A DNA stretch of 55,098 bases, taken from IMG/VR virus record IMGVR_UViG_3300013119_000328, positions 1 to 55,098 of that record. One strand, 5' to 3'. The notes beneath the pieces are model-generated. The model was given only the letters and a program-made list of their open reading frames with translations, was not told the DNA's origin and did no database searches. This document shows, piece after piece, positions 1,386-17,108 of the stretch; the first letter of the stretch is position 1; each line of letters opens with the position of its first letter. The translations under genes and the position numbers were made by a program. The DNA comes from a virus (Duplodnaviria; Caudoviricetes).

Positions 1386-1503
1386 TTGTCCTCCTTCTCC
1401 TTCATAGTACTACTAATGCTCCTTTGTATATCTTTTTTGTTTGGTGCCCGAAATTCACTAGGCAGTAGTCGCCCCGGATTTCATATGCTCTCCTTCTATC
1501 CTT

Positions 1504-1565: not shown

Positions 1566-1566
1566 A

Positions 1567-2556
1567 TTATGATAGTCTGCGCAAATTCTTTCTCAACGAA
1601 CGAGTGCTAAAGCCCCACTTCGGATCATAGTCAAGACTGGCGATATATACTTTATTTAGGGTGATCTTGTCGTCGTCCTTGATACCCCAGCACTTAATCT
1701 GCGCATCATACGAATTACTATCACACGTTTTCAAAATCCAGAACGGTTTACCATTCTTGGTTTTGCGGACAACTACTTCTCGGGGGACGAACCAGACAAG
1801 CTTTAGATCGGGATCATACTCACTTACAGGGGGACAACCCTTCTCTAAGAGCGATTGCTGGAGTTCTACGGACATAATCTCGTGTAGAGGGAAAATGCCC
1901 GTTAGAGAGGCGAAATTCTCTAGGCGCTCCTCTGGGGAGAAATCCCCCTCGGGAGCATAAAGTTCGATGTTCTCTAATAGGTTCTTCTCCTTACGAGGGC
2001 GATCTACGGCGACCGAAGACCAGAAGTGCTTCATCCCAGTGAAATGGGCGTCCATCAACTCGTCAAGGGCTTGCGACCGGACAAGGATGTCTAGGGCTTT
2101 CTTGTTGAGCTTGGAGTAGATAACCGACTCGCTGAATAGGAACTCCTCGATCGTGTCGAAAGGGCGGTTCATTAGGATCTGCTCGACCGCTTTGTCGCCC
2201 AAACCCTTGATCCCCGTAAGGGGCTGGATGAGCGTCTTGCCGTCTTCGCTGATCTCCCAGACCAACCCAGAATGGTTGACGGAGGGCGAGGTAATCTCAT
2301 AACCAAAGGACTTGGCGGTGGCGATGGCGGACATCTTCTTGGCTTCTGGCTCGGTGTCGAGGAACGAAGCGATCCACTCGGGCTCGTAGTTGTGGAGGAG
2401 CCAAGCGCATTGGAAGGAGATGGCCCCGTAGGCGACCGAGTGAGAATTGCTCGTTAAAACCCCGTTTGCCAAATAGAATTGATGATCTTTGTGTCCTACC
2501 TCCAAATCATAGGTTGGGATCTCACCCACCTCCTCGACTAACTTAATTTTCGCCAT
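1567..2556 (-). CDS. dnaE: DNA polymerase III alpha, C-terminal half, led by a split C-intein
   Basis: 37-aa C-intein, then SHSVAYGAISFQ continuing the FNKSH motif; HhH GIKGLG; OB-fold tail. Confidence 0.93.
   Translation of the reverse strand: MAKIKLVEEVGEIPTYDLEVGHKDHQFYLANGVLTSNSHSVAYGAISFQCAWLLHNYEPEWIASFLDTEPEAKKMSAIATAKSFGYEITSPSVNHSGLVWEISEDGKTLIQPLTGIKGLGDKAVEQILMNRPFDTIEEFLFSESVIYSKLNKKALDILVRSQALDELMDAHFTGMKHFWSSVAVDRPRKEKNLLENIELYAPEGDFSPEERLENFASLTGIFPLHEIMSVELQQSLLEKGCPPVSEYDPDLKLVWFVPREVVVRKTKNGKPFWILKTCDSNSYDAQIKCWGIKDDDKITLNKVYIASLDYDPKWGFSTRSLRKNLRRLS
2446..2556 (-). mobile_element. Split intein C-fragment of DnaE (37 aa)
   Basis: MAKIKLVEEVGEIPTYDLEVGHKDHQFYLANGVLTSN|S: blocks F/G, terminal Asn, Ser+1. 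Confidence 0.93.
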
Positions 2557-2738
2557 CTTCGTAAACCTTTCCTATTTTGTGGATGCCGACAACCCTATTA
2601 TCCACCAAAAGCCTGATTTTGTCAAGTGCCTCTTTCTTTACTCTTCCCGTACTACTCGCACTTCTTTCCATGGCGTGCTATACCACCTGCTGTCTTTGTT
2701 TCTTTTCCGCACTCACAACGATATCCAGATTCTCCTCT
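2543..2738 (-). pseudogene. Remnant of a free-standing endonuclease gene in the dnaE gap
   Basis: An alternate frame encodes zinc-finger-like YRCECGKETKTAGGIARHGKKCE* (stop 2652-2654). A second short ORF (2671-2543) ends VKKEALDKIRLLVDNR...EDGEN*, overlapping the C-intein start. Confidence 0.55.
2597..2625 (-). promoter_or_regulatory. Sigma70-type promoter for the dnaE C-half
   Basis: TTGACA-N17-GATAAT in the gap between the dnaE halves. Confidence 0.7.
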
Positions 2739-3010
2739 AAGACTCTCTGAATAGGAAGCATTCTTCCGCACTCTGTTCTGAACTTGTGATCCATAGTACA
2801 CTCTATGCTTCTCCCATCGTCAAGCGTGAAACGGAACACCTTCTTCGTTCCGTTGTTGTGGTTCTTCAACACAGGTACCAAAAGGTCGGCTCCCGTATTT
2901 TCGTCCCGAGATCTCACCAGGTCGCCCTCTGATACCTCACAGATGGGCAGGTCAGCAATCACTTCCCCACCACTACTATAAACAGTCACGAGTTCAGAAA
3001 AAGACAAACA
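2678..3010 (-). mobile_element. Split intein N-fragment of DnaE (110 aa)
   Basis: CLSFSELV block A; IECTMDHKF block B (TxxH); stop with no block F/G. Confidence 0.93.
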
Positions 3011-5617
3011 TTGATTGAAAGAGTAGCCCGAGAAGTAAATCATCTTTTGCCACAAGTCATCAAGTTGCGCCTGCTTGAACCCCTTCGCTAGTCCGCCCTT
3101 GTCGAACTTTCCTCGCAGAGCCTCCTTGACCTCTTGGGTCTTGCCTGTGCCCTTCTTCGTGAGAACCTTGCGGAGCATGTTGCCCTCGTCAAGTGTTAGT
3201 CCCTCGCCGATCTTGTGGGCTAGCATCGCTAACTGCTCTTGGAAAACCAACAACCCATAGGTGTCCCCAAGGACCTCCTTGATGATCGGGTGATCGTAGG
3301 TGACCTGCTTCGGGTTCTCCTTGTTGGCGACATAGAGTTTATGGACGTTTGCTGATAAAGGTCCGGGTCGGTAGATCGCTGTGATGGCGGCGAAGTCCTC
3401 AAGGGAGGTTGGTCGTGCCTCTTGGCAGAACTTCTGGGCTCCTCCGTTTGTCATCTGGAAGATGCCAGCCCACTTGCCTCTGTGGAAGATGCTCTTCCAG
3501 ACCTCTTCGTCGTTAAAATCTAGTACATCGGGGTGGAGGTTCTTGTTGTAGAAATCTCTTACTTGCCCGAATGATGGGTCGGGAATGTTGTGGTGGCGCT
3601 TTAGGATGTGGCGGATGGCTCCGCTGATCATGCGGAGAGTGGAGAGACCAAGGAGATCGAACTTGATGAAGCCGAGTGGTTCCAAGTGGCGAACGTTTTG
3701 ACCCTCTGCCCACGGGGCTTGGATTGTCCCGCCAGAGTTGATCAAGGGCATATGGCGGTCAAGGTTCTCCGTGACCAGCACACCTCCGGCGTGGCGGCTG
3801 GTGCTCCGGATGTTGCCGAAAAGGACATCAACGTGGGTGGCGATTTGTGGGTGCTTCTCGAAGAACGCTTGAAGCGACTCGCTGTACTCCTTCACCTCGC
3901 TGAACGTAGGGACATAGACGCCAGCCGTGATGCCGTGGGCTTTCTTGGCTTTTGGGGTCGCCTCGCCCATCATAGCGCCTGTGACCTTGTTGACCTCCAT
4001 AAACGGGACATCATAGAACTTGCCAAGGTCCTTGAGGAGCGATCGGAGTTGGAGCGTGTTGAAGTTACTGATGGGGACAACCGTTGTCTCACCCCAGTCG
4101 TCTTGGAGGGCTCGGACGAGATCCATTCTCGATTCGTAATCGCTATCGATGTCCGGGTACCCTGATCCGCCCTTCGTCAGGAACCTCTCGAACTGAAGGT
4201 TGTACTTGATTGGGTCAATCTGGGTGATGTTGAGGACATAGGCAAGGAGGGAGCCCCCCGCTGATCCTCGTCCGAGACCCACGAGCATCATGTCTTGGGC
4301 TTTGTCGTTGATGGCTTTCATCGTCAGGAAGTATTGAGAGAACCCTCGGGTGTCGATGATGTCGATCTCGTATTTGAGGCGCTCGACATACTCCTTGTCG
4401 GTGTGGAGTTCTTTCTCTTTTAGCCCGCTGATGGCTAGCTCCGTGAGGGCTTGGGTGGCTGTTTTGCCCTCGGGGATCACGAACTCTGGAAGGCGAACGG
4501 TGGCGTCTGGTAAAAAGTCCTCAATGCGATCATAGGCGATGTCATGAGTGCGAGTGATAGACGCCAAAACAAAGTCGTCGTCATACTCTACTTTGGACCG
4601 GGATGAGTACTTCTTGTAACTCTCCCACATTTGGTCGCCGTTCTTTGGGTAGAGTTCGTAGCCGATGTCCTCTACTGACTCCGGGAGAAGGTTGGCGTCC
4701 TCGCCCCACGCAGGGGCTTTGCCCGCCCAGCCGATGCGCTTATACATCTCTCGGTCTTTCCAGAGTTCAGGGCGAGGATAGTGGCTATCTGCCGTGCTGA
4801 TGACTTGGATGCCGAGTTCGATGCAGACTTGGATCACATAGTTGTTGAGTTCGTGTTGTTCCGGTACATCGTTCCACTGGACCTCCCCATAGAAGCGGTC
4901 GCCGAAGATGTCTTTGAAGCGGGTGGCGGTGGCTCGCATTGCCTCAAGGACGTGGTCGGGCGATTTATCCTTGTTACGCCACATGTCATTAGCTAAGACC
5001 CCGGAAAGGCAGGCACTTGAGACAATCAACCCCTCGTTGTACTCCTCAAGCATCTCGAAGTCCATACGAGGGTAGCGATAGAAGTTTTCGGGGCGATAAC
5101 TATCGCTTACTAACTGAAAAAGGTTGTTGAGCCCAACCTGATTCTGGGCGACGATGACGAGATGAGAGCGGTTGTTCAAGGGGTTAAACTTTCGTCTTCC
5201 CTTGTCCTCCTCCTCGACGACCATCTTGAACTCCTCCTTCTTTTGCTTCTTGGAGTTCGCCTGATGCTCGTCTCGCATCACTCGCCACTTCTTGTGGCTC
5301 GGGATGAAGTAGGTTTCACAGCCATAGATGGCTTTAAACTCTTTGCCGCCTTTCCTCATCTTTTTGAGGTGCTCTACTTGGTACGAGAGCCCGTTCATGT
5401 GTCCATGGTCGGTCATCGCTAATGCTCGCATTCCATTCTCGTGGGCAAACTCCATATGTTCTTTCGGCATTCCGAGTCCGTCAAAAGGAGACATCCCGCT
5501 GTGTGCGTGAAGTCCTACGAAGGGGATCGTGGAAGTGATGCGATCGGGCTTGGTCTGCATAGGCGACCTTCCTTTGTTGTTCTCTAACTGTTCTTTATTG
5601 TAAGCGAAGACCGCCAT
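2678..5617 (-). CDS. dnaE: DNA polymerase III alpha, N-terminal half (PHP + polymerase), ending in a split N-intein
   Basis: PHP motifs LHAHS, TDHG, GCETY, ADSHY; GRGSAGGS; PDIDSD; KFDLLGL; GYSFNQ|CLS junction. Alternative start at 5560. Confidence 0.95.
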   Translation of the reverse strand: MAVFAYNKEQLENNKGRSPMQTKPDRITSTIPFVGLHAHSGMSPFDGLGMPKEHMEFAHENGMRALAMTDHGHMNGLSYQVEHLKKMRKGGKEFKAIYGCETYFIPSHKKWRVMRDEHQANSKKQKKEEFKMVVEEEDKGRRKFNPLNNRSHLVIVAQNQVGLNNLFQLVSDSYRPENFYRYPRMDFEMLEEYNEGLIVSSACLSGVLANDMWRNKDKSPDHVLEAMRATATRFKDIFGDRFYGEVQWNDVPEQHELNNYVIQVCIELGIQVISTADSHYPRPELWKDREMYKRIGWAGKAPAWGEDANLLPESVEDIGYELYPKNGDQMWESYKKYSSRSKVEYDDDFVLASITRTHDIAYDRIEDFLPDATVRLPEFVIPEGKTATQALTELAISGLKEKELHTDKEYVERLKYEIDIIDTRGFSQYFLTMKAINDKAQDMMLVGLGRGSAGGSLLAYVLNITQIDPIKYNLQFERFLTKGGSGYPDIDSDYESRMDLVRALQDDWGETTVVPISNFNTLQLRSLLKDLGKFYDVPFMEVNKVTGAMMGEATPKAKKAHGITAGVYVPTFSEVKEYSESLQAFFEKHPQIATHVDVLFGNIRSTSRHAGGVLVTENLDRHMPLINSGGTIQAPWAEGQNVRHLEPLGFIKFDLLGLSTLRMISGAIRHILKRHHNIPDPSFGQVRDFYNKNLHPDVLDFNDEEVWKSIFHRGKWAGIFQMTNGGAQKFCQEARPTSLEDFAAITAIYRPGPLSANVHKLYVANKENPKQVTYDHPIIKEVLGDTYGLLVFQEQLAMLAHKIGEGLTLDEGNMLRKVLTKKGTGKTQEVKEALRGKFDKGGLAKGFKQAQLDDLWQKMIYFSGYSFNQCLSFSELVTVYSSGGEVIADLPICEVSEGDLVRSRDENTGADLLVPVLKNHNNGTKKVFRFTLDDGRSIECTMDHKFRTECGRMLPIQRVLEENLDIVVSAEKKQRQQVV

Positions 5618-5626
5618 AAAGTCAAC

Positions 5627-6004
5627 CTATTCTTCGGGCTTTTCTTCTTTTTCTTTCTGCCCGTAAACCATCTGCTCTCCGTCTTCGAAGGTGATGGTGG
5701 TTATGTTGGTTGGGTGGGGACCGATGTGGGTGCTGATGAAGTCGCCCATCGACTCAAAGATGGCTATGGAGCCCTTGGGCGGAGGGAGGAGCCAGTGAAG
5801 GACAACGGCTCCCGTCGCATAGAGTACACCTTCGATGATGACGCCCGTCCCGCTGACTCCTGACTCATCATTTTGGCGATGGACGGTGAAAGTGCGGATG
5901 CCTCGGGGGGCTGTGCGTGCTGGTGGCTTAGGGCGAAGATCCTCTGCCTCAGCAACCGCTTCCTCTGAGGTTTCGAATGCCCCTCTGTTTCCTTCATCGA
6001 CCAT
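5627..6004 (-). CDS. Conserved-looking phage hypothetical protein
   Basis: RTFTVHRQNDESGVSGTGVIIEGV motif; operon position. Confidence 0.7.
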   Translation of the reverse strand: MVDEGNRGAFETSEEAVAEAEDLRPKPPARTAPRGIRTFTVHRQNDESGVSGTGVIIEGVLYATGAVVLHWLLPPPKGSIAIFESMGDFISTHIGPHPTNITTITFEDGEQMVYGQKEKEEKPEE

Positions 6005-6007
6005 AAA

Positions 6008-6295
6008 CTAACTCCCCGTAATGATGCACATTACATAGTTCGCTGGGACCATAATGATCTCTTCGTTGCCTATGACGACCTTTTCGATCATATGGGTGAG
6101 AATGATGATCTCGTGCCCGACCTCTAAACCCGCTGGGCTCTCAACATCTTGGGCGATCGCAGTGACCACCGCTCGTGTATACTCGCTCGGAGGCTTGGCG
6201 TCCTCTGGCAAAATGAATGATCGGGTTTCCACTTCCTTGGCGGTCTCTTCGACTACCTCGATCAATAGTCTCTTGTTTGCTGGGTTGATTTTCAC
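6008..6295 (-). CDS. groES: GroES/gp31-like co-chaperonin
   Basis: KINPANKRLLIE, FILPEDAK mobile-loop-like segment, AVVTAI, LEVGHEII. GTG start overlaps the upstream TGA. Confidence 0.7.
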   Translation of the reverse strand: MKINPANKRLLIEVVEETAKEVETRSFILPEDAKPPSEYTRAVVTAIAQDVESPAGLEVGHEIIILTHMIEKVVIGNEEIIMVPANYVMCIITGS

Positions 6296-6507
6296 TTCAA
6301 CTTCTCCCATTGTAGTTGTGCTGTTCTGAATGTCTTTTCGGTCATAATCGACCACTCTCTCTCGTTGCAGTGTTTGCAGTATGCCTCTACTGCTACATCT
6401 CGTCCAAATCGCCTTGTTTGTGATGTGGGCACCCAAGCGTGCTTGTCTGCGCTTGGGCATTCGCTCTCGTTGTATTTGTCTGGCATAAAATGATTGAAGT
6501 TAGACAT
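6292..6507 (-). CDS. Small Cys/His zinc-ribbon-like hypothetical protein
   Basis: ECP...HAW...YCKHC; RBS and promoter upstream. Confidence 0.7.
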   Translation of the reverse strand: MSNFNHFMPDKYNESECPSADKHAWVPTSQTRRFGRDVAVEAYCKHCNEREWSIMTEKTFRTAQLQWEKLK

Positions 6508-6529
6508 GTATTTCCCCTTCCGTCTTTCT

Positions 6530-6579
6530 ATTCTACTCTACTATTCTCGTTTTGTAAAGGTCTTTTCTTTTGTTGCCGG
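6530..6579 (-). promoter_or_regulatory. Sigma70-type promoter with GGCAACAAAA box
   Basis: CCGGCAACAAAAGAAAAGACC-TTTACA-N17-TAGAAT. Confidence 0.65.
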
Positions 6580-6821
6580 GTAATGGGTGATGGTGATTGA
6601 GCCGTCTTCGTATTCTGTGGCGAGCATCCGTTGGCCGGTGGTGAATAGGGCTGTCCAATAGGTGGCTGATGCTATCCTTGGTTGGATGTTTGCTTCTCTG
6701 CGGAACCACTCATGCCTCTTCGCCCCCAAGCGATTGAAAGTGGCTTGCCGACGAGGACATCACCTTGGGGACTGAGATAGAACTCATAGGTCTGTGCGGG
6801 TTGGCGTAATAGTTCGCTCAT
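6541..6821 (-). pseudogene. Hypothetical gene apparently split by a -1 shift at a G5 run
   Basis: ATG 6821 (ATGA-coupled) opens a 49-aa ORF. The -1 frame is open from the G5 run (6723-6727) to 6541 and has no convincing start of its own. Confidence 0.4.
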
Positions 6822-8092
6822 CTTCCTGCTTCTAAGGTGGCTCGCTCTTCTTCTGATACTCGCTCTAATTCTAGCGGCTGGAAGACCACAACTGCGTCAA
6901 AATAACGACCCTTGACAAACATCCCTAGGTTGTAGGACTTGATCTTCTCGTAGAGTTTCTGAAGTCCGCCAGAAGGACCCTTGATGGAGAATCCGTCGAC
7001 TGGGTCGCGGAACTGATCCTTGAGGTCGTCAGGATCCACAAGCGGATCGTAGATCTCATCGAGAGGGACCGAAACGCGATAGAGAGAATAGCCCGCACGG
7101 AAGAGGTGCTCCCTTTGGGTCGGATCCACATAGAAGAAGGTTCGTGGGGTCGTGACGCTCTCCATCTCTCGCCGAGAGTGCGTCTGTGACTTAAACTTGG
7201 GGTCTGTGGTGAATCGCTCGCCGAGTGACTCGTCGGCGTAGTGATAAAGAGTGATCTGGTTGCCTTGGGCGTAATCCTTGAGATAGTGGCGAGCTTCTGA
7301 TAAAATGGCGACCATCTCACGGAGTTCACGGAATTTAGTGCGACCGACGTTTAGGTGGTGCCAGTGACTCTTCGGAGGGACGCTGTCGTATAGGGCTGCC
7401 CTGGAATGCTCGCGAATCTCGGAAAGTAGCCCATTTACAGATGGGTTACATAGCTCATTTAGCCCCGCAAGATGATCCCCTTGGGCGAAGTCCTTCACTT
7501 GTGCTTCTTCTAGCTCATAGCCGTCATCAAAGAAAGGAATAAGGAACTTGCGACCAGCAGACTGACGCTCCTGAGAGTAGTTGGGACTCTCTGGGTCAAC
7601 TTCGTCGCCGAACAAAACTGCTGTGCGCTTGTTCGTCGTCTCTCCGCTGAATCTCGCTAAGGTGTCGTCTGTTGCTGGTGAGGTCTCCTTGATGTGCTCA
7701 ATGTACTCGAACTCATAGCTGTTGTCGGACTGCTTGGTTCCCCACACGACTGACTCCTGACGGAACATGCCAGCAAAACGAATCAACTCATCTCGGGAAA
7801 TGTTCGGGACCATGAAAGATCGCTCAAGGTCGCCGAAGCGACCACGAATACGAATAGGACCATAGCCACGAGAGCGCAGACCCGCCATCAACTGCTTGTT
7901 GCTGGCTACATTCTCCTTCTTGGGGAGTTCGGCGGCATACTCGCCACCCTCCGGCTTTGGGTTCCAGGCGGTGATGAAGCCGACCGAACTCACAGAGCCC
8001 ACGTTCCCCTGAAGGATGTTCTTGATCCTGTTGAAACCCGATTCGGTCAACCGGAACTCTCGCCACTTCTGAAATGTGTCTTTGATCGTCAT
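6818..8092 (-). CDS. Two-domain late protein: DUF3293-like N-domain plus possible ADP-ribosyltransferase-fold C-domain
   Basis: GFITAWNP...ERSF...FRQESVVW; then ITLYHY...RTFFY...LYRVSV. CTATTTA motif upstream. Confidence 0.5.
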   Translation of the reverse strand: MTIKDTFQKWREFRLTESGFNRIKNILQGNVGSVSSVGFITAWNPKPEGGEYAAELPKKENVASNKQLMAGLRSRGYGPIRIRGRFGDLERSFMVPNISRDELIRFAGMFRQESVVWGTKQSDNSYEFEYIEHIKETSPATDDTLARFSGETTNKRTAVLFGDEVDPESPNYSQERQSAGRKFLIPFFDDGYELEEAQVKDFAQGDHLAGLNELCNPSVNGLLSEIREHSRAALYDSVPPKSHWHHLNVGRTKFRELREMVAILSEARHYLKDYAQGNQITLYHYADESLGERFTTDPKFKSQTHSRREMESVTTPRTFFYVDPTQREHLFRAGYSLYRVSVPLDEIYDPLVDPDDLKDQFRDPVDGFSIKGPSGGLQKLYEKIKSYNLGMFVKGRYFDAVVVFQPLELERVSEEERATLEAGR

Positions 8093-8138
8093 CGCTATAC
8101 TTCTCCCTTTGTCGTCAAGATGTCTCCCCTAAATAGGA

Positions 8139-8405
8139 TCATCTTGCAACAAACCGCCCCAAGTATGCAACCTTCTCCAACCTCTTGATTTCGATCGGAT
8201 GGAGTTCGTTGGCTCGATAGGTGTGCTTTTTGTAGTCCTTCTTGGTCATATCCTCTCTGTGGGCTACTCTGCTCTCATAAACTCCATCATCAAACCAAGT
8301 CACTTTGAACTCTGCCCACCCATCGATGATCTCCTTCGAGGTGATCCTTCCGAATCGTAAAAGTCCATTGTAAGAATTCCAAACGCTACTTCCGATGTCT
8401 AACAC
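8139..8405 (-). CDS. Hypothetical protein, SH3-like beta pattern
   Basis: GTG start after AAGGAG; MLDIGSSVW...FGRIT...FKVTW. Promoter TTAACA-N16-GATAAT at 8431-8458 with GGCAACAAG box. Confidence 0.7.
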   Translation of the reverse strand: MLDIGSSVWNSYNGLLRFGRITSKEIIDGWAEFKVTWFDDGVYESRVAHREDMTKKDYKKHTYRANELHPIEIKRLEKVAYLGRFVAR

Positions 8406-8478
8406 ATTCTCTTCTCCTTTTCGTAACATCATTATCTCACAAATTTGGCTTTTGTTAAGTCTTTTTCTTGTTGCCCGA

Positions 8479-9162
8479 TTAAGTGATCTCACAACCGCCT
8501 GCTCCGCACGCTAGTGCTTCGGCTTGGACTGTGTTGTCTTCCATTTCGACGATGGCTTTGATGTCTACGCTGGTTAGGGTCTCCATCAAGGTGTCGTAGG
8601 TCTCCTTAGAGCAGTCGGTAAAGGGAGCCTGTTGGTAGGTGCCGCCGTCGAAGGGGAGGAGGGATAGACCTGTGTAGAACTCTCGGTTCTTCCACATCCA
8701 CTCTGCGAGGTCTTCCCACTCATTCTCACGCACACTTACGGTTGCTGAGACGTTGTTCTTGTTGGAACCCTTAGTGTGGCCTGGGAAGACCCAATCTTTG
8801 CTGACTTTCTTCACTCTCTCAAGGAAGCGGTAGGCGGATTCGCCTCGGGTGATGGCTCCCCCTGGGGCTCTCTGGGGGACCGAGATGACCGCCGTGTCAT
8901 GGGGGCGGAAATATTCATCTTCCACTAACTCAGGGTGGTAGGCGGCGAGATGCTGGTAGATCGCTTCGTTCTTGCCGACACGAATGCGACGGATGTAGTA
9001 CGGGGCGTGCCAAGCGTGGATGCCGGACGAGGTTCCCATAACGAGACTGGTCGTGTTGTGTACCACACAACCATTCCCCAGTTGATATGTGTGTGTTCCG
9101 TCAACTTCGAGATCGAGGGTCATTTGTTTCGCCTCACTCTTCTTGATGCTCTTAATTCTCAT
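8479..9162 (-). CDS. nrdJ: Class II ribonucleotide reductase, C-terminal part, led by a split C-intein
   Basis: 36-aa C-intein, then TTSLVMGTSSGIHAWH; NVSATV; YQQAPF; C-terminal ACGAGGCEI; own RBS AGGAG. Confidence 0.93.
   Translation of the reverse strand: MRIKSIKKSEAKQMTLDLEVDGTHTYQLGNGCVVHNTTSLVMGTSSGIHAWHAPYYIRRIRVGKNEAIYQHLAAYHPELVEDEYFRPHDTAVISVPQRAPGGAITRGESAYRFLERVKKVSKDWVFPGHTKGSNKNNVSATVSVRENEWEDLAEWMWKNREFYTGLSLLPFDGGTYQQAPFTDCSKETYDTLMETLTSVDIKAIVEMEDNTVQAEALACGAGGCEIT
9055..9162 (-). mobile_element. Split intein C-fragment of NrdJ (36 aa)
   Basis: MRIKSIKKSEAKQMTLDLEVDGTHTYQLGNGCVVHN|T. Confidence 0.93.
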
Positions 9163-9299: not shown

Positions 9300-9629
9300 C
9301 TAATAACTTAGGATATCATCGTCGAGGTCTAAATCCGCAGCTTTGACCCAGCCCCGATTCGTAGTCAAAAAGCGATGCTCCTTCGTTGCGGAAACAGTCG
9401 TGCCGTCGTCTAGCTCAATCTCATATGTGTCTGCTAACCCATTGACGAACAACTTGGTGATAAGCTCCTTCTCGTTTTTCTCGTTGTAAACGTATATCTT
9501 CTCATTCGCCGGCAAAAACTCTCCCGCCGACCGCTTGATGATAGACTCCGTGTACCCATTGGCATCAAAGATTGTTGATAGCTTGATGTTTCCGAGGTTG
9601 GTGCGAATTTCTGTGTCTGCGGATAGACA
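9300..9629 (-). mobile_element. Split intein N-fragment of NrdJ (109 aa)
   Basis: CLSADTEIRT block A; SATKEHRFLT block B; GWVKAADL; stop. Confidence 0.93.
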
Positions 9630-11339
9630 ACCCGATGGCTTCACCGTAGTTAGGCGAGCGGCTGGGTTGGTGTTTAGCAACTCTGCTACTCGGGCGTTTT
9701 CAGCTTTGGCGACTTCTGCGGCTTTGGCGAGATCGATGTCCTCGCTCAGGACTGCTCCTGAGGCGATGCCCGTCATAGATACACCAACGAGGGCGTCCTT
9801 CTCTGTGTTTCGTTGCCACTTCGCTCGTAGGTAGTGGAAGTCGGTGTAGGATGCTTGAAGTGTGCCGATGAGGGTGGCTGCGGTGACTCTGGCTTCTAAG
9901 TCGGCTTGGTCTTCGATGTCTGAAACGTTGACTTCTACGAGATTGCAGAACTGCATTGAACGCAGGGCTATTTCTCCGCACGGGTTTGTCCCTAGCTCCT
10001 TATCGTTGCTCAGGACGATACCAGGTTCGCCAGCCCTGCTCATTTCGGTTCGCTTGAGAAGATTAAGGAAGAAGTCCTTTTCTATTTTGTGCCGCAAGAC
10101 CACTACTGAGTTGTTAGCACGACCTCGCTGGGGATTCGTCTCCCACCAGTTGCCGGCTTTGGCGGCGAGCATCTCCTCGTCGTCTGCATCAAAAAGGGCA
10201 ATCATAGCAGAGTTGTGAGATACAGACTCCAACCCCGTGGACGGATTCTTTGCCGTAAAGCAATGAACCTCATCAACCTCAATGTCATAAGTCTCCTCTG
10301 AACCGAAGTCTTCTACGTGCAAAATATCAACGAAATCGTACTTCTCTTTTGCAAAAGAATATCGGGTCGGGTCCTTAGAAATGTCGCTGGCGGTGGTCCA
10401 GATAATCTTCTCAGACTTCTTGTCCAACACCAGCCACCGATGGTTGGGTGTCGAAAGGTGATATCCCTCGGCAGTGGTAAGTTTTACGATATCCTGTTCG
10501 CCCTGCTCGAAGTTGTTCTTTACCTCATAATATCTCTCATTGTAATATACCGAGTCTCCTCTCGACATCTCTGATATCTCCTTGTATTGGTCCGGACCAA
10601 CACAGACTAAATAGTTGCTCGGCAGACATCTCCTAATTCCGCCAGCCAAAACTGCATCCGCAATGTGACACATAATATCATGGACCTCGATGGTCGTTAG
10701 TTTGGAACCGACGGGCTTGGACTCAAAAATGCCCTCGATCTTAACAAGGCACTCTCGGAGAGGTTGAGGTCCGGGCGCTTTGCCGCCAGAGGTGACCAAA
10801 AGGGCACCCTTCTCACGGATGTCGCTGTAATCGAATCGGATCTTGGAGCCACCAACATAGTACTGACGGACAAGGGCTTTGACCGAATCTGCCCAACCCT
10901 CGATACTGTCGCCGATGAGGAAACGGCGTGTGCGGTCGCTGTTCGGCTTTACGATCTCGGGCAGTTGTTCGGCGTGGTGGCTCTGGACGCTGTAACCCAC
11001 TCCGCAACCAGACAACAGGAGGAACATCGTCTCGTTGAAGGCTCGATAGTCGTCGATAGCGAGGAAGGCGCAGTTGAATAGGCGAGTTGGATTCACCTCG
11101 ATGGCTTTGCCTGCGAACTGCATCGAACGCATCGATGGGAGAACCTTCTTCGCTGATACGAGTTTGTAGGTGCTATTGATCTCATCTTTGAGTTCGGGGA
11201 ACTTCTTGATATGCATCGCCTTGTTGCGGGTGACCATCTCACCGAAGGTCTCCCTGCGATTCTTCTTGGGGAGATATTTTGCGTACTTCATGTATGTGGT
11301 GATGTCGGACAAAATGTCAACAGATAGATCTTTGCTCAT
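9300..11339 (-). CDS. nrdJ: Class II ribonucleotide reductase, N-terminal part, with a cis mini-intein and a terminal split N-intein
   Basis: VLPSMRSMQFAG, FNCAF, GCGVGYSVQ, GGIRR|..|SAMI, GTNPCGEI, FCNLVE, TVKPSG|CLS. Confidence 0.94.
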   Translation of the reverse strand: MSKDLSVDILSDITTYMKYAKYLPKKNRRETFGEMVTRNKAMHIKKFPELKDEINSTYKLVSAKKVLPSMRSMQFAGKAIEVNPTRLFNCAFLAIDDYRAFNETMFLLLSGCGVGYSVQSHHAEQLPEIVKPNSDRTRRFLIGDSIEGWADSVKALVRQYYVGGSKIRFDYSDIREKGALLVTSGGKAPGPQPLRECLVKIEGIFESKPVGSKLTTIEVHDIMCHIADAVLAGGIRRCLPSNYLVCVGPDQYKEISEMSRGDSVYYNERYYEVKNNFEQGEQDIVKLTTAEGYHLSTPNHRWLVLDKKSEKIIWTTASDISKDPTRYSFAKEKYDFVDILHVEDFGSEETYDIEVDEVHCFTAKNPSTGLESVSHNSAMIALFDADDEEMLAAKAGNWWETNPQRGRANNSVVVLRHKIEKDFFLNLLKRTEMSRAGEPGIVLSNDKELGTNPCGEIALRSMQFCNLVEVNVSDIEDQADLEARVTAATLIGTLQASYTDFHYLRAKWQRNTEKDALVGVSMTGIASGAVLSEDIDLAKAAEVAKAENARVAELLNTNPAARLTTVKPSGCLSADTEIRTNLGNIKLSTIFDANGYTESIIKRSAGEFLPANEKIYVYNEKNEKELITKLFVNGLADTYEIELDDGTTVSATKEHRFLTTNRGWVKAADLDLDDDILSY
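10212..10628 (-). mobile_element. Cis mini-intein in NrdJ (139 aa, no endonuclease)
   Basis: GGIRR|CLPSNY...STPNHRW...TYDIEVDEVHCF...VSHN|SAM. Confidence 0.92.
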
Positions 11340-11340
11340 G

Positions 11341-13992
11341 CTATTGGTTCTCCTTTTTGTTGTGTTTTTCTGTTGCCGCAGAGTTGGCGGCGTGGGCGGC
11401 CTGCTCTTTGGCTAGGTTCTCTTTTTGGCGTTTGAGGTCCCTGATGAATTTCTTCTTCTCCCAAGCAGGCAGAGCGTCTAGCTCCTCCTTGGTTTGGGGT
11501 CCGTTGGCTAGGAGATCACTGAGAGAGCGGTGCTCCGGGGCTTTGCTCTTCTTTCTGCGTCTGTTGCCTGGGACTGACTCATCATTATAGGTCTTGTACT
11601 TCTTCTTGAGCCAGTCCTGTTGCTCTTGTTTCGTCTTGGCGACGACAGAGTCAATCCCGCCCGCTTCGCTGTCGGGGTGGTGGACCTCAAGTCTGACTCG
11701 ACTGGTGTCGATCGTCATCGGATAGACGATGCCGTCTGGTCCGTTGCGGTTCTTGGCTACGAACATACGACCCTTATCTTGTGCCTTGTCTTCGACGGTC
11801 CGACTGATGGAGCAGATGAGATCAGCGACGAAGCACTTGTTGAACGCTTCGCTGATGCTCTCCATCGTGATGACTTCGGCGTTTAGCCCGCTGCGATTTG
11901 TTTGAGAACAAGACCAACAGACCGCCTCATATTTCTGCGCAATGCCTCGCATCTCCTCGTAAATATCACCTAGATTGTGTCGCAACTCAGTCTTGTATCC
12001 GCCTTGTTGGCGAGGGCGCAACAAATCCCCATAGTCGATGATGATCATATCGGGTTCAATGCCTCGCTGACGTAGGCGATCTAGGTGGTTCTCGATGGTG
12101 CTCGTGGATGCTGACTTGGTGGGATACTCCTTGACGATGAGTTTGCCCGTGACCCCACGAACCTCTTCTTCGATCTTGTCCTTCATCGAATGGAGGTCTT
12201 GGAGCTGGACCTTCGTAAGGCAACTGTCGTAGCGGTTGCCGACAACCGTATCTGCGAGTTCCAACGTATAGTGGACGACCGTCTTTCCCTCCTTAAGTGC
12301 TTGGGTGCCGAGGTGGACCATGGCCATCGATTTGCCAGAGTTGTGCGTGACCGTAAAGTCGCCCATCAAATATAGATGATCTCCCGTCAACTCAAAACCA
12401 TAATAGTAGTCATCAGGTACCTGCTCGACACTAAACCCTGTGCGAAGAACATTCTTCTTCTGTTGTCGTTCAGAGCACTTCTTGCGCTCAATGCGTACCG
12501 GGATTTTGATACAATCCCCCGAAATAGACACACGATAATACTGTCCCTTGGTTCCGTGTTGGTCCGACTTTGTGCACTCGGTCACATATGCCGCCAAGCC
12601 AAGACTCCGAGAGAGGAATGCCACATCGTCCGCAAGTCCTTGTGATTTGGAAACAAAGTCGTATCCATAACCCTTAGAACAACTTCCGTCGGTGTCGATC
12701 AAACCAGCCAATACTGAGAGGCGATCTGCCTCTGGTGCGACCAAGTATCCCGAAGGCACCCGCTTGTTGTCCGACTTCTGCCCATAGATGCCGATTTCTC
12801 TCAGGAATGTTCCTAGTGGGTTTCTAGGTTGCCCCGGCGAAACAAGGGCAAGGTCTATCGTCGAACCTGTTTGTTTCTGATACTCTCGAATTGTCAGTCC
12901 AAAAATGTCTGCTACCCGACAAACCTCTTCTCTCAAAACCTCATCGTCGCTCGTAAAGCGAATATTATAATTAGAGGTGGATCCGTCTCCCAACATCAGT
13001 CCGACGAAATAAGGGTGGGAGACTTTCGACTGAGAGGCGAATGACTTTACACCTGTTCTGTAAAGTTTGTGAATGTGCCTGAATGTCTTACTTTTGGTAA
13101 GATATTCGTCGACAGTTAGATTCACAACCTTTCCGGCAAAGGAAGTCCCATCGGCAGTCCTCACCAAGGACAAGATGTGGCCACCGTTGACAACGAACGA
13201 CTCACCCTTCACAGGGGTGATTCGGTACATCCTGTCCCGACCCCGAGCCAAGGTCTTTACGGCCCTTGGAAGCGAATCCGGACCCATCAATTCATCTCCT
13301 TTTCGGATATCTTCCACCGCTACTCTTTTTCCATCTGACATCATCACTAGCGTGCCTCGCTCATGGCAACCAGTTGGAGCGACGATGATTCCTAATTCCT
13401 TCTTACCTAGTCCGCCACGAGTAATGTCATCAATCTCGTCCCAGCCAGTAGAGATCGGGTCTCTATCGTGAATCGTGTAGCGATCCTCGAAGTCCTCAAT
13501 GAAGTCATGTCCGTAGTTGTTGTCTAGACCAAGCTTCATCGCCTGCTCAATAACCCCCTGGATCTCCTCGAAGGATGAGGTTTGTAGCAACTCTACCGAC
13601 TTGAGAATGGCGTCCTTGAGTTTCTGCTTCTTGCAAAAGTCAAGGGACTTCTCTCGAACGTACTCGCCGTCCTCGGCGTTGACGTCGCCCGTCTTGATCC
13701 GTGCTAAAAAGTCAATCATCTGCTTCTTGATGATGTCGCTTGCTTCGTCCAGCTCTGAGCGGATGATGGACGACACAATCACCTGCGTCGGGTGGACCTC
13801 ATACTTCTTCTTGTAGTCGAAGATGAGTTCAACGAAGGTGCGGATGTAGCGCAACTCCAAATAGTTGACTTCCAGGACCTCGATCATCTGGTTCGCAAAT
13901 GGGCGGTCTTCTAGGATGTTATATGCTAATTTCTCTTGGAACGCTTTACCGAATTTGGCAAATGTGATCTGTTCGTTCTTCTTCTTGGTCAA
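11341..13992 (-). CDS. dnaB: Replicative helicase (DnaB/T4 gp41-like) with intein
   Basis: ISTGWDEID, Walker A APTG|SGKS interrupted by an intein, HYTLEL, IIIDYGDLL, SQTNRSG, VAKNRNG. Confidence 0.93.
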   Translation of the reverse strand: MTKKKNEQITFAKFGKAFQEKLAYNILEDRPFANQMIEVLEVNYLELRYIRTFVELIFDYKKKYEVHPTQVIVSSIIRSELDEASDIIKKQMIDFLARIKTGDVNAEDGEYVREKSLDFCKKQKLKDAILKSVELLQTSSFEEIQGVIEQAMKLGLDNNYGHDFIEDFEDRYTIHDRDPISTGWDEIDDITRGGLGKKELGIIVAPTGCHERGTLVMMSDGKRVAVEDIRKGDELMGPDSLPRAVKTLARGRDRMYRITPVKGESFVVNGGHILSLVRTADGTSFAGKVVNLTVDEYLTKSKTFRHIHKLYRTGVKSFASQSKVSHPYFVGLMLGDGSTSNYNIRFTSDDEVLREEVCRVADIFGLTIREYQKQTGSTIDLALVSPGQPRNPLGTFLREIGIYGQKSDNKRVPSGYLVAPEADRLSVLAGLIDTDGSCSKGYGYDFVSKSQGLADDVAFLSRSLGLAAYVTECTKSDQHGTKGQYYRVSISGDCIKIPVRIERKKCSERQQKKNVLRTGFSVEQVPDDYYYGFELTGDHLYLMGDFTVTHNSGKSMAMVHLGTQALKEGKTVVHYTLELADTVVGNRYDSCLTKVQLQDLHSMKDKIEEEVRGVTGKLIVKEYPTKSASTSTIENHLDRLRQRGIEPDMIIIDYGDLLRPRQQGGYKTELRHNLGDIYEEMRGIAQKYEAVCWSCSQTNRSGLNAEVITMESISEAFNKCFVADLICSISRTVEDKAQDKGRMFVAKNRNGPDGIVYPMTIDTSRVRLEVHHPDSEAGGIDSVVAKTKQEQQDWLKKKYKTYNDESVPGNRRRKKSKAPEHRSLSDLLANGPQTKEELDALPAWEKKKFIRDLKRQKENLAKEQAAHAANSAATEKHNKKENQ
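12340..13368 (-). mobile_element. Cis intein with LAGLIDADG endonuclease in the helicase Walker A (343 aa)
   Basis: CHERGT...VNGGHIL...VGLMLGDG...LAGLIDTDGS...FTVTHN|S. Confidence 0.95.
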
Positions 13993-14007
13993 TCGTCTTC
14001 CGTTCTT

Positions 14008-14952
14008 TTATGCGTTCTGGAAATGGCTTAGTAAGTAGTCGAGATTGAGAGAACCGATCCCGTCTCTCATAAGCATAACACGGATTTTGGTTTTGTTCAA
14101 CCCTTTATTTTCTTTTATTGCCCGATAAAGTGCGGTGCTTTCTTCGGGTGAGATTTCTGGGTTGTAGAGCTGCATTATACGGTAATTGTCGGAGATGGTC
14201 TCTTGGTTATCGAGGAGATCTTGGTAGATTTTGACCTTGCCTAGGTTCTCCTTGGCGTGGGCTACTAAATCGCTGACTTGGTAGGAATTGTCCTCCCGTA
14301 AAAAGGGAAAACGCTTGATGGCGGTGGCTAGACCGACACGATGGAGACCAGGGAGGTTGTCGGAAGTGTCGCCAGCCATGGCTCGGGCTAGGGCGTAGTT
14401 CTTTGGGTGGATGCCGTCCTTTTCCAAGATAGTCTTTTTAGAGACGATCTGCTTGGCTACTGGACGAATAATAATTGTTTCATCATCACACAACTGGAAG
14501 AAATCCTTGTCGCTTGATAGGATCACTTTTTGCCAACCTGCGAAGTGTGGATGGCTAGTGGTCCAAGAAATCAGGTCGTCAGCCTCTTGGGTGGGAAGGT
14601 AAAGTTGTGTGAGAGGCATCTCTGCGAGATACTCTATGAGGCGAGAGATTTGCTCATCCTTGTTCGCTAACTCTTGGTTGTCGGAGATCTCAAATGCCCT
14701 ATTGAGGCGTTTGGGGATCTTTCGACCGGTTTTATAGTCCTCGTTGATGAGACGACGGCGGGCTGTTCCACCTGTGCCGTCCCAACACACCACGACCTCG
14801 TCCGGGTTGGTCTCTCGTAAATGTTTTTGCAAGGTCTTCATGAAACCATCTACGCCCCCAAAAGGGGCTCCGTTAGAATTTAGGGTTGGATTTACACACC
14901 ACGACCTAACAAACGCCCCGAGGGCATCTACGACTAATACTCGTTTACTCAT
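14008..14952 (-). CDS. 5'-3' exonuclease/flap endonuclease (T4 RNase H / PolI 5' nuclease family)
   Basis: VLVVDA, WDG, YKTGR, EADDLI, SSDKDFFQL, GDTSDNLPG. Start at the TGATG overlap. Confidence 0.92.
   Translation of the reverse strand: MSKRVLVVDALGAFVRSWCVNPTLNSNGAPFGGVDGFMKTLQKHLRETNPDEVVVCWDGTGGTARRRLINEDYKTGRKIPKRLNRAFEISDNQELANKDEQISRLIEYLAEMPLTQLYLPTQEADDLISWTTSHPHFAGWQKVILSSDKDFFQLCDDETIIIRPVAKQIVSKKTILEKDGIHPKNYALARAMAGDTSDNLPGLHRVGLATAIKRFPFLREDNSYQVSDLVAHAKENLGKVKIYQDLLDNQETISDNYRIMQLYNPEISPEESTALYRAIKENKGLNKTKIRVMLMRDGIGSLNLDYLLSHFQNA
14072..14124 (-). promoter_or_regulatory. Internal sigma70-type promoter upstream of the helicase
   Basis: CGGGCAATAAAAGAAAATAAAGGG-TTGAAC-N17-TATGCT with TG extension. 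Confidence 0.5.
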
Positions 14953-15341
14953 CAAAAGTCCATCGTTCCTGTGCCGTGCTCTGTTGTAAAAACCGCTCGG
15001 CGTAATCCGTGTTTGTTGATAATCTCTTGGCATTTAACACAAGGACAACTCATTCCGGGAAGGTCGTTCCTCCCCTTTCTCGCTACATAGATCGTCGCCC
15101 CCTGGAGGCGACTCTTGTCCTTCACTCGCCAAATGGCGTCCATCTCTGCGTGAACTGAACGAGTGAAATCCGCTTCGCTCGACTTGGGGTGGGTCTTGTA
15201 TCTGTTCCTCCCCACGGAGATCACATTTCCGCCCTTCACTATCACCGCTACATGGCGATGGAGGAGGCTCTTGCTATACTCGTTCGTGTCTATCTTCCGC
15301 AGGGCAAATGCTAGGAACTTATTTCGCTTCCTCTTTGTCAT
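14952..15341 (-). CDS. Cytidine/dCMP deaminase-family zinc protein
   Basis: HAEMDAI and CPCVKC motifs. Promoter TTGACA-N16-TAGAAT at 15362-15389. Confidence 0.85.
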   Translation of the reverse strand: MTKRKRNKFLAFALRKIDTNEYSKSLLHRHVAVIVKGGNVISVGRNRYKTHPKSSEADFTRSVHAEMDAIWRVKDKSRLQGATIYVARKGRNDLPGMSCPCVKCQEIINKHGLRRAVFTTEHGTGTMDF

Positions 15342-15385
15342 CTCGCCCTACCTTCTTACCTATTCTACACTCATCTTCCAAAATG

Positions 15386-16612
15386 TCAAGAACTCTTTTC
15401 TTCATCTGCCCGCTGAGTGGTTTGATCGAGAATCTCTAACACTCGCTCTTTGAACTTGTCCTCTGTCAACATTTTGAGCCAACTGCCTGCCTGGAACTTC
15501 TTGGACTTCGTGCCATCAGCATATTCTAACTCCTTCCAAGTCGTCCCATGAATGTACTGAGAGTCCTTAACTGCTTCCAGCCAACTTTCCTCATCTTGAA
15601 TCCCAACCCTGTCGCCGCCCCACAAAATCTTAAACATCGCTTTGCGACCTTGGGTGCCTCCTCGTGATTTCTCGATCTTAGCCGAGACAGATGAACCGAT
15701 GCGCTCGCCCCGGTCATTCTCAACAAAAGATGCTCTTGCTTTGCGTCCCGTCAACCAGATACGAAGAGTGTATGCATAAGTTAGCGCCTTGCCTCCCGGT
15801 GTAAAGTACGGAGTCACAAGCGCCTCTGCTGGGGTCTTGGGGATATTAATGCGTAGTTGGTTGATAATCATTAAGGTGTGTTGCTTTGCGTTGAGTGGGT
15901 TAATCAGCTTTTGGAGTCCGGCACCAATTACTTTGGGTTTACGGAGCATCCCGCCAGCATTGGGGTTGAGTTTTTCGGACTCTAAATCCGATTCACAGGG
16001 AGTAAAGGCTAAACTGTCCCAGATGAATAAGATCTGCTTATCAGTGGAGTCAATAATAGTATCGATAGTATCAAAGACAAACTCACAGGAGGTTGCTGGA
16101 ATGTAAAGGAAGTTTTCCAAATTGACGCCGGAACGCTCTAGAAACTGCGCATCCAGAGCCGACTCTGAGTCAAAATAGACAACATCAATTCCCTTCTTCT
16201 GTGCGTTGACGGCAACCTGCACTGCCATATAACTCTTTCCGGTGTTGTGGTTCAGGATGCCGTTGCCGTAATAACATGCCTCAGGGTGTTTGACTGTGAT
16301 GTCAACAATTTGCTTCGCACCTACCTGGCTGACCTGGCTGACTTCATGGTATTCGCCATCATCACAAAGTAGTCTTGTTGAGCCGACGACGAGTTCGCTA
16401 GTGCGGACCCACCCTTCTGATGCGAAGAACCTATGTTCCGCTGTGACTTCGATCCGGCGCTCATTTGCTAGAACCACCTCGTGTGCCGGCAACAGCCCCT
16501 TGTCGATGTAGTCGACGATCTCCGTGTACTCCCCCGACAAAGTCTTAACCCGTACCTTGTGTCCGGCATTGAGCAACTCTTTGACCTCTGCGATTCTGAT
16601 CTTCTTCTTCAT
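15386..16612 (-). CDS. recA: RecA/UvsX recombinase, C-terminal part, led by a long split C-intein
   Basis: 123-aa intein part ending ILNHN|TGKS; then YFDSESALD, FIWDSLA, INQLR, TPGGKAL. Alternative GTG start at 16618. Confidence 0.92.
   Translation of the reverse strand: MKKKIRIAEVKELLNAGHKVRVKTLSGEYTEIVDYIDKGLLPAHEVVLANERRIEVTAEHRFFASEGWVRTSELVVGSTRLLCDDGEYHEVSQVSQVGAKQIVDITVKHPEACYYGNGILNHNTGKSYMAVQVAVNAQKKGIDVVYFDSESALDAQFLERSGVNLENFLYIPATSCEFVFDTIDTIIDSTDKQILFIWDSLAFTPCESDLESEKLNPNAGGMLRKPKVIGAGLQKLINPLNAKQHTLMIINQLRINIPKTPAEALVTPYFTPGGKALTYAYTLRIWLTGRKARASFVENDRGERIGSSVSAKIEKSRGGTQGRKAMFKILWGGDRVGIQDEESWLEAVKDSQYIHGTTWKELEYADGTKSKKFQAGSWLKMLTEDKFKERVLEILDQTTQRADEEKSS
16244..16612 (-). 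mobile_element. Atypical split intein C-fragment of RecA (123 aa, blocks B, F, G)
   Basis: EVTAEHRFF block B; IVDITVKHPEACYYGNGILNHN|T. Confidence 0.92.
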
Positions 16613-16824
16613 ACCCACTTTAACAACCTTTCATATTCTGTGCTGTTCATTGGTTCTATTGTACCTGATTCTATCAACTTGTCAAGTGTTTCTTTGTCAT
16701 ACTTCGGAAAACTAAAATCCTCCTCTGTCACGACTGTGAACTTCAAGCCCCATTGCTCACAAAACGATCGGGCGGCGGCGAACCTTGCTTTGTTTTCTCG
16801 TGTATCAAGTAGGCGGCCTATCAG
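16609..16824 (-). pseudogene. C-terminal remnant of a TnsA-like endonuclease in the recA gap
   Basis: LIGRLLDTRENKARFAAARSFCEQWGLKFTVVTEEDF...LLKWV*; its TGA overlaps the C-intein ATG. Confidence 0.65.
16658..16685 (-). promoter_or_regulatory. Sigma70-type promoter for the recA C-part
   Basis: TTGACA-N16-TACAAT inside the nuclease remnant. Confidence 0.7.
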
Positions 16825-16866
16825 TCAATCCACTTCCACCTCGATAAGGGTGTCGTCTGAAACGCA
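16825..16866 (-). mobile_element. Atypical split intein N-fragment of RecA (13 aa)
   Basis: CVSDDTLIEVEVD is block A only, followed by TGA. Confidence 0.88.
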
Positions 16867-17061
16867 GGCTTCAAGCCCCGCCACCTCACATATTTTGCCT
16901 ACTGGAATACCAGCTCGTTGCCCCTGTTTGATGATGTTGTCTAACCACCTTGAACCAGTGGGGATCCAATCTGACACCGTTGATGGGTCATTCTCGTCCA
17001 TACGGTAGGCAACTTGGGCTCGCTTGTTCAGCATCTTTTTAAGGTCATCGATGTTGGACAT
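16825..17061 (-). CDS. recA: RecA/UvsX N-terminal part ending in a 13-aa N-intein
   Basis: WIPTGSRWLD...GIPVGKICEVAGLEA|CVSDDTLIEVEVD*; RBS TAAGGAG. Confidence 0.9.
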   Translation of the reverse strand: MSNIDDLKKMLNKRAQVAYRMDENDPSTVSDWIPTGSRWLDNIIKQGQRAGIPVGKICEVAGLEACVSDDTLIEVEVD

Positions 17062-17108
17062 GTTTATCTCCTTATTGTTTTATTTCTTGTTGCCCGCTAA
17101 TGAGGTTA

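Follow-up and report, generated by a model that had tools for sequence, protein, structure and literature searches.

Three predicted split inteins and relics of three homing endonuclease genes in one marine T4-like phage

How does a phage make core replication enzymes whose genes are each broken in two? The question is raised by the IMG/VR virus record IMGVR_UViG_3300013119_000328, all of which we analysed (henceforth the window: 55,098 bp, linear, CheckV completeness about 30%). The genes for the DNA polymerase III alpha subunit (DnaE), a class II ribonucleotide reductase (NrdJ) and a RecA/UvsX-like protein (henceforth RecA) are each divided here, within 16 kb, into an N-terminal and a C-terminal open reading frame (N-ORF and C-ORF) separated by a short gap. 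A sequence-only reading of this DNA had proposed that each N-ORF ends in an N-intein, that each C-ORF begins with a C-intein from a start codon of its own, and that two further inteins act in cis. The ORF translations bear this description out. The breaks lie where it had placed them, at FNQ|SHS in DnaE, KPSG|TT in NrdJ and GLEA|TGKS in RecA; the intein parts measure 110+37, 109+36 and 13+123 amino acids (aa); a start codon preceded by a Shine-Dalgarno-like sequence opens each C-ORF; and the two cis inteins are found in NrdJ and in a DnaB-like helicase (Table 1).

The three pairs retain the residues expected of working inteins. The first intein residue is Cys in all of them, directly after FNQ, KPSG and GLEA. 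Block B of inteins is defined by the motif TxxH, which reads TMDH in DnaE, TKEH in NrdJ and TAEH in RecA, in the last case within the C-ORF. Every C-intein ends in Asn followed by Ser or Thr at position +1 (TSN|S, VHN|T and NHN|T), a feature conserved in the homologs read. Removal of both fragments restores a colinear host protein, as seen from intein-free homologs that run continuously across the junctions: P0122 and P0135 for DnaE (...GYGFN(L/K)SHAVSY), P0304 for NrdJ (...TVKPSGTSSLVLG) and P0002, 77% identical to the RecA extein, for RecA (...AGLEATGKSYMAVQ). Similarity searches agree. The DnaE N-intein matches the solved Npu and Ssp DnaE inteins in a PDB search (E 1e-11), the NrdJ N-intein scores 42.4 bits against Pfam Intein_splicing (cut-off 35.8) and the best PDB match of the RecA C-intein is VidaL (6vgv, E 4.9e-7, over residues 4–124); the NrdJ C-intein alone gave no PDB match at E <= 10. 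Because the genes are broken, carry matching intein fragments and keep intact catalytic residues, trans-splicing is the best reading, and the sequences make it very probable that the three split genes are rejoined in this way at the protein level.

In all three genes the fragments lie on separate translation units, with a stop codon, a gap in another frame and a new start. Stop-codon read-through could not fuse the halves, since the gaps (121, 137 and 206 bp) are not multiples of three; on these grounds, and because another TGA closes the spacer frame of RecA, we rejected both read-through and an altered genetic code. RNA introns were also rejected, as an Rfam search of positions 1400–17400 at gathering thresholds returned no intron or other RNA family.

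The region between 1500 and 17100 was compared with Logan contigs from the four public runs in which the sequence is present, all belonging to one marine-metagenome study and with no RNA run listed among them: X1, possibly the source sample, and X2–X4, three other samples. Contigs bridge the NrdJ gap in X2 and X3 and the RecA gap in X3 and X4, with no change that would restore the frame, which speaks against assembly errors as the source of the breaks. In X1 the DnaE gap is bridged, while two contigs meet within the RecA gap without bridging it. A strain variant in X4 carries four small deletions (10 bases in total) and one substitution at 9280–9293, in the NrdJ gap near the N-ORF stop, the kind of change expected in non-coding DNA.

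Relatives are broken at the same points. For RecA, a single-protein query returned only one weak locus, and an alignment was used as the query instead; among the resulting 20 IMG/VR loci with an N-part upstream, 16 (12 distinct sequences) are split at the same point and four (three distinct) are contiguous. The N-intein is 13–14 aa long in all 13 aligned loci, with an invariant Cys1. Eleven database proteins of 404–436 aa start at the same intein point, and the longer P0007 and P0013 are contiguous alleles that place the break in a loop after CV.EDT.I.V. C-ORFs of 329–336 aa account for 11 of the best 120 matches to DnaE (C-intein at the start in 9/9 read), and whole-length C-ORFs of 225–246 aa for about 60 of the best 120 matches to NrdJ (7/7 read), although these database protein searches favour split forms by virtue of the length window used. 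P0172 is a contiguous DnaE intein allele at the same site, its N-part joining its C-part directly (FNK|SH). This protein also opens with the C-part of a second intein elsewhere in DnaE (...VHN|CIFQEQ), and the DnaE of its organism appears to be fractured at another site too. A second split site was likewise seen in NrdJ, within the active-site motif NPC|CE, in locus L215 (record G013) and in proteins P0291 and P0313; in G013 the gap is about 88 bp and a split RecA lies on the same record. Among the ten other split-RecA records searched, split DnaE also occurs in G001, split NrdJ with an endonuclease in G003 and the NPC|C split of NrdJ in G013; all three split genes together were found in none of the ten, eight of which are fragments.

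The gaps themselves hold a clue to the origin of the breaks. In related loci the two halves are separated by a full ORF: 340 aa in L129 and 257 aa in L040 for DnaE; 385 aa in L045 and 333 aa in L043 for NrdJ, both of DUF559 type; and 370–440 aa for RecA, in L005, L007, L008, L011, L013, L017, L021 and L024, with sub-threshold matches to TnsA/endonuclease-I and NUMOD3. The L045 ORF reaches 26.5 bits against DUF559 (cut-off 20.6) and fits the Vsr-like endonucleases described in the part of Dassa et al. 2009 available to us (PMC2677866). When translated, each gap of the window aligns with the end of the endonuclease ORF of its own gene, as scored against 300 shuffles: DnaE (frame 0) with residues 302–334 of the 340 in L129 (z 18.6), NrdJ (frame 1) with residues 342–378 of the 385 in L045 (z 7.1) and RecA (frame 0) with residues 335–381 of the 400 in L005 (z 11.1). 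All nine non-cognate combinations of gap and endonuclease gave z <= 2.2. By blastp, the RecA gap peptide matches eight of 11 related gap ORF sets, with no match in L007, L021 or L009. Pfam yielded TnsA-like N for the RecA peptide, below the cut-off (E 0.0013), and no match for the DnaE and NrdJ peptides. These alignments identify each gap as what is left of the 3' end of the endonuclease gene that belongs to it, which is new here.

Between the halves of the window genes there is no free-standing endonuclease gene, only 3' remnants of 40–68 codons without a start, while full endonuclease genes occupy this position in L129, L040, L045, L043, L005 and others. The three split inteins are, by this comparison, fractured genes that have lost their endonucleases. 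For RecA the gaps form a decay series: a full gene (1133–1349 nt), a truncated one (about 165 aa, about 510 nt, in L014–L016), remnants of 206 nt in the window, 157 nt in L019 and 138 nt in L009, and finally 9 nt in L012 and L025. Together with the contiguous alleles, a single intein family offers a natural series from contiguous, through split with full endonuclease, truncated and short remnant, to almost no spacer. Such a series backs the 2009 proposal of endonuclease insertion as the origin of split inteins, here with relics of three different endonucleases caught in one genome.

The course of events would then be as follows. A free-standing homing endonuclease gene would have inserted into the coding sequence of each of the three inteins, cutting it in two, and each would later have been almost wholly deleted, leaving the last 40–68 codons. 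What remains would serve as a spacer with the ribosome-binding site of the C-half and, for DnaE and RecA, probably also with a promoter. The N- and C-halves would be translated separately from adjacent ORFs, and their intein fragments would associate, in a canonical split for DnaE and NrdJ (about 110 + 36 aa) and for RecA in an atypical split (13 + 123 aa) that directly follows the first two strands. Folded into a HINT domain, they would splice to give full-length DnaE, NrdJ and RecA, with the NrdJ mini-intein having to splice in cis as well.

Table 1. Split genes, intein parts, gaps and cis inteins between positions 1567 and 17061 of the window
Feature	Coordinates	Strand	Description
DnaE (Pol III alpha) N-half ORF	2678-5617	-	979 aa; PHP, NTPase and finger domains, then N-intein
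DnaE N-intein	2681-3010	-	110 aa; Cys1 directly after ...GYSFNQ; block B TMDH
DnaE gap	2557-2677	-	121 bp; endonuclease gene 3' remnant; Shine-Dalgarno-like GGAAAGG before C-ORF
DnaE C-half ORF	1567-2556	-	329 aa; opens with C-intein, then SHSVAYG
DnaE C-intein	2446-2556	-	37 aa; ends ...TSN
NrdJ (class II ribonucleotide reductase) N-half ORF	9300-11339	-	679 aa; cis mini-intein inside, N-intein at end
NrdJ cis mini-intein	10212-10628	-	139 aa; between GGIRR and SAMIALF
NrdJ N-intein	9303-9629	-	109 aa after ...TVKPSG; Cys1; block B TKEH
NrdJ gap	9163-9299	-	137 bp; DUF559/Vsr-like endonuclease gene 3' remnant; strong AAGGAG before C-ORF
NrdJ C-half ORF	8479-9162	-	227 aa; opens with C-intein, then TTSLV
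NrdJ C-intein	9055-9162	-	36 aa; ends ...VHN
DnaB-like helicase	11341-13992	-	cis intein in Walker A motif
DnaB-like helicase cis intein	12340-13368	-	343 aa; LAGLIDADG endonuclease domain; relatives without intein
RecA/UvsX-like N-half ORF	16825-17061	-	78 aa; N-intein at end
RecA N-intein	16828-16866	-	13 aa after ...AGLEA
RecA gap	16619-16824	-	206 bp; TnsA/endonuclease-I-like endonuclease gene 3' remnant
RecA/UvsX-like C-half ORF	15386-16618	-	C-intein (block B TAEH), then TGKSYMA, Walker A
RecA C-intein	16244-16618	-	123 aa from ATG at 16612 or 125 aa from GTG at 16618; ends ...NHN

Each remnant adjoins the start of its C-ORF and carries the Shine-Dalgarno-like sequence of that ORF, and two of them hold more. 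The DnaE gap contains a sigma-70-like site, TTGACA-17-GATAAT (2625–2597), and the RecA gap another, TTGACA-16-TACAAT (16685–16658), both aimed at the C-half. Sites matching at 11 of 12 positions number only four in the whole window, all on the coding strand (shuffled sequences have a mean of 0.59), and these two precede the C-ORFs of DnaE and RecA by about 40 nt. The other two, both on the minus strand, are at 15389–15362, at the end of the RecA C-ORF and ahead of an ORF at 14952–15341, and at 54449–54422. Hexamers identical to those of the DnaE gap occur in L129, inside the intact endonuclease gene, and the 138-bp remnant of L009 has a 12-of-12 site. In the 2009 account of fractured genes, control elements reportedly arrived with the endonuclease genes. 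From the position and match of these sites we infer, with moderate confidence, that the remnants carry promoters that drive the DnaE and RecA C-halves. A further step, which we consider doubtful, is that the 3' ends of the lost endonuclease genes were kept by selection as promoter and ribosome-binding site of the C-halves, setting up an AND gate alongside a working split intein with a 13-aa N-fragment. If true, endonuclease invasion would have permanently rewired expression, placing the N- and C-halves of DnaE and RecA in different transcription units, and full-length enzyme would be made only when both units are on, a natural AND gate built from the leftovers of selfish elements.

Regulation had also figured in the sequence-only reading, as a post-translational gate on replication. 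In its full form the idea would be that split inteins are kept to time or condition replication, with the pairs selected for orthogonality; we regard this as unlikely. The location of all five inteins in replication and repair genes would suit it, as would the near-consensus promoter-like sites of the DnaE and RecA C-halves, which would allow separate control of the halves. But the gaps are relics of three different homing endonuclease genes, and invasion by selfish elements followed by their decay accounts for the arrangement, so that the breaks are explained by this history without a regulatory role and the proposed gate is left unsupported. Nothing suggestive of condition sensing was noticed, orthogonality is the usual state of unrelated split inteins in any case, and close relatives manage without any of these inteins. 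The closest records (G006–G008), with 58–77% identity in these proteins and a gene order identical to that of the window, are all three without the intein in RecA, the two in NrdJ and the one in DnaB; the DnaE intein is likewise missing from G007 and G008, and in the G006 fragment DnaE was not found or examined.

The halves might instead function unspliced, either as two-chain enzymes or with the intein fragments as non-covalent dimerisation modules. A mere docking module would have no need of the splicing residues, all of which are kept in the three pairs and in their diverged homologs, and at breaks that fall within catalytic motifs (Walker A; FNKSH) the enzymes would probably not tolerate the insertion of a folded HINT domain of 136 to 147 residues. 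We find this very improbable, even with the precedent of an Aeromonas phage NrdA, split by an endonuclease gene and working as two chains according to the part of that report available to us (PMC3045599). There is, finally, hardly any chance that the breaks are assembly artefacts or fresh pseudogenes of a dying lineage in which the enzymes are not made, for although the window is a metagenome assembly and its closest relatives have intact, intein-free genes, the NrdJ and RecA gaps reappear in contigs of three other samples, breaks at these points with open halves are seen in numerous independent, diverged assemblies, every C-ORF comes with a start and a Shine-Dalgarno-like sequence of its own, and both halves of the three genes are open over 78–979 codons.

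A number of points weigh against the preferred reading, trans-splicing of fractured genes whose endonucleases decayed into spacers with control signals. From the sequences alone we infer splicing, its efficiency, the lack of cross-reaction among the pairs and the use of the promoters. NrdJ and RecA have Thr at +1, a nucleophile met less often there than Cys or Ser, though it is conserved in the homologs read. The four runs of the assembly check come from one study, with X1 possibly the source sample. The absence of inteins from G006–G008 at the sites examined means that they are dispensable for the enzymes, and the lineage of the window could in principle be decaying. By extein similarity, splits at these sites are rare, with a split DnaE in only two and a split NrdJ in only one of the best 80 IMG/VR relatives. 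For DnaE, 80 loci were fetched by similarity and L040 was added by choice (81 of 82 classified), and 78 of the 81 have no intein at the site; for NrdJ the figure is 80 of 81, with L043, which a strand filter had removed from this set, found to be split. As to promoters, no site in the NrdJ gap resembles one at >=9 of 12, most related split loci have none at >=10 of 12, and of 18 such loci that were scanned only two have a site matching at 11 or more of 12 upstream of the C-ORF, so that the promoter idea does not apply generally.

For RecA, association of the two parts was also modelled. A complex of N-ORF residues 40–78 with C-ORF residues 1–135 scored 0.68, against 0.00 for the best of three controls; among solved complexes 58 of 80 reach this score, among mismatched pairs 2 of 110, a calibration that is roughly valid, as our own alignments were used. 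The model runs share at least 77% of their contacts, the predicted local distance difference test (pLDDT) of the partner is at least 51 and the predicted interface is made of residues 64–78, i.e. the 13-aa fragment plus two extein residues. The VidaL complex has already been solved, so this result may reflect likeness to it and not binding.

Three pairs that meet in one cell raise the matter of cross-reaction. A published 24 x 24 test found in vivo orthogonality for 15 of 16 different split inteins, with the residual cross-talk coming mostly from atypical short fragments (PMC7090010, as far as the consulted sections go). Mutual orthogonality is for this reason the expected default, and by analogy we would expect it of the three pairs. 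The RecA pair is split at a different topological site from the other two, and similarity between the DnaE and NrdJ inteins is confined to the conserved blocks (10/27 and 10/23 identities in the best local alignments). A difference in charge between the pairs had been pointed out before. The contrast in polarity is real, with net charges of -3 for the DnaE C-intein, +1 for the NrdJ C-intein, whose start is basic, and -8 for the NrdJ N-intein, whose end is acidic; the basic tail ascribed to the DnaE N-intein extends past the point at which the N- and C-parts join in the contiguous allele P0172, and may lie outside the fold. In the accessible part of a preprint (bioRxiv 10.1101/546465), the gp41-1 C-intein (IntC) is negative and that of Npu DnaE positive, and a charge swap alone did not abolish Npu DnaE cross-activity. 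The DnaE pair of the window follows the gp41-1 pattern of these charge zippers and the NrdJ pair that of Npu DnaE but, unlike those systems, both polarities are present here in one genome. Three diverged pairs resident in one genome, of which two are canonical, with opposite polarity, and the third is atypical, are candidates for orthogonal protein ligation.

The window, whose sizeable genes are all on the minus strand, is a fragment of a marine T4-like myophage genome whose full length, going by the 30% completeness, would be about 180 kb; it encodes a Gp23 major capsid protein, a Gp20 portal, a T4-type large terminase, a tail sheath and a tape measure protein. The best matches of its terminase among cultured phages, Flavobacterium phage immuto and Microcystis phage Mel-JY01, are 42–44% identical, and the alignment of the Mel-JY01 RecA to that of the window covers the extein only. 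Inteins have invaded the replication module of the window on five occasions. At the site of the NrdJ cis mini-intein, intein-free relatives read GGIRRAAMIALF, and their matches skip residues 239–376. Related inteins may also be carried by the RecA/UvsX-like genes of the Pseudomonas jumbo phages PA5oct, MIJ3 and kin and of Salicola phage SCTP-2, which align from C-ORF residue 3–5 onwards, through the C-intein part; the only intein described in the MIJ3 paper is a split one in PolB.

Elsewhere in the window, two full-length, free-standing endonuclease-like ORFs flank the capsid genes (36427–37920, 497 aa, and 42093–43589, 498 aa, both on the minus strand). Both match phrog_3339/phrog_559 'homing/HNH endonuclease'; one has a Mom-family domain and the other DUF7487 with a sub-threshold MTES_1575 nuclease match. 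The endonuclease ORF of the DnaE locus L040 also matches phrog_559. Large insertions seem to be present in the tail sheath (996 aa against a profile of 496 positions; 30648–33638, minus strand) and in the Gp23-type capsid protein (574 aa, matching in two stretches; 38075–39799, minus strand), with no intein family match in either. An ORF at 20158–21366 (minus strand, 402 aa) has a partial match to family-A DNA polymerases (profile positions 108–236 of 381), in a genome that also encodes Pol III alpha, and its neighbour at 21431–22594 has no family match. We considered these two as a possible fourth fractured gene and rejected it, as they show no intein motif. Between the DnaE and NrdJ genes lies an ORF (6818–8092, minus strand, 424 aa) with an N-terminal DUF3293 match.

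The kind of system described here is known, namely split inteins in phage replication genes arising via endonuclease insertion. Fractured genes with split inteins have been reported from phage metagenomes, as the sequence-only reading rightly noted, and this precedent is closer to the window than that reading suggested, with DnaE and NrdJ described in 2009 and VidaL as the nearest solved relative of the RecA C-intein. The portion available of that description (Dassa et al. 2009, PMC2677866) covers DNA-synthesis and repair enzymes, mainly in phage-like metagenome DNA, with three loci for DnaE and two for NrdJ. It places Vsr-like endonucleases in half of the loci, notes that gp41-7 is already without its endonuclease gene and states that the metagenomic DnaE integration points differ from the cyanobacterial one. 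The window differs in that all three of its loci are without an endonuclease gene, keeping only a 3' end, and in having three fractured genes on one contig. RecA/UvsX is not among the eight host types in that portion of the text, where UvsX comes up solely as a neighbouring gene and recA solely in connection with group I introns. Searches of open-access text, the 2009 supplement excepted, returned only engineering papers and Dassa et al. 2009 and no account of a phage genome that carries three natural split inteins, which is not proof of absence. We see moderate interest in the triple co-residence, the three endonuclease relics and the 13-aa fragment and, for phage biology, in the presence of five inteins within 16 kb when the nearest relatives have none at the same sites.

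In cyanobacteria the DnaE junction is, we assume, AEY|CFNKSH, four residues upstream of the insertion point in the window. A look for this extein motif in PMC11168065 did not find it. The window intein is inserted after FN(K/Q), so that neither the insertion point nor the placement of the halves is that of the cyanobacterial allele: Npu and Ssp DnaE have their halves at distant loci and Cys at +1, whereas those of the window are adjacent (121 bp apart) with Ser at +1. The N-inteins are nevertheless homologous, the C-intein can be aligned over its whole length with Npu IntC and the penultimate residue is Ser in both, although the C-intein starts acidic in the window and basic in Npu.

The RecA pair finds its counterpart in VidaL, which presumably comes from the UvsX gene of a Lake Vida metagenome. 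Like VidaL (PDB 6vgv/6vgw), it is split after strand beta2, at the S1 position, with a very short N-fragment. S1-split inteins of the VidaL type already serve as laboratory tools. Its features are those of the atypical S1 split, an N-fragment of about 15 aa that ends after strand beta2 and block B in the C-fragment, on a strand numbering taken from the part of PMC13014065 available to us. The sequence match between the two is distant, and the N-fragment has 13 aa in RecA and 16 aa in VidaL, whose splicing half-time is given as about 1 min in the same source. Natural atypical N-fragments range there from 15 to 37 aa, PolB16 holding the record at 15 aa with VidaL at 16 aa (PMC13014065, 2026, in the sections available). 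The 13–14 aa of the RecA family would be shorter than this 15–16-aa natural record, and lie within easy reach of peptide synthesis.

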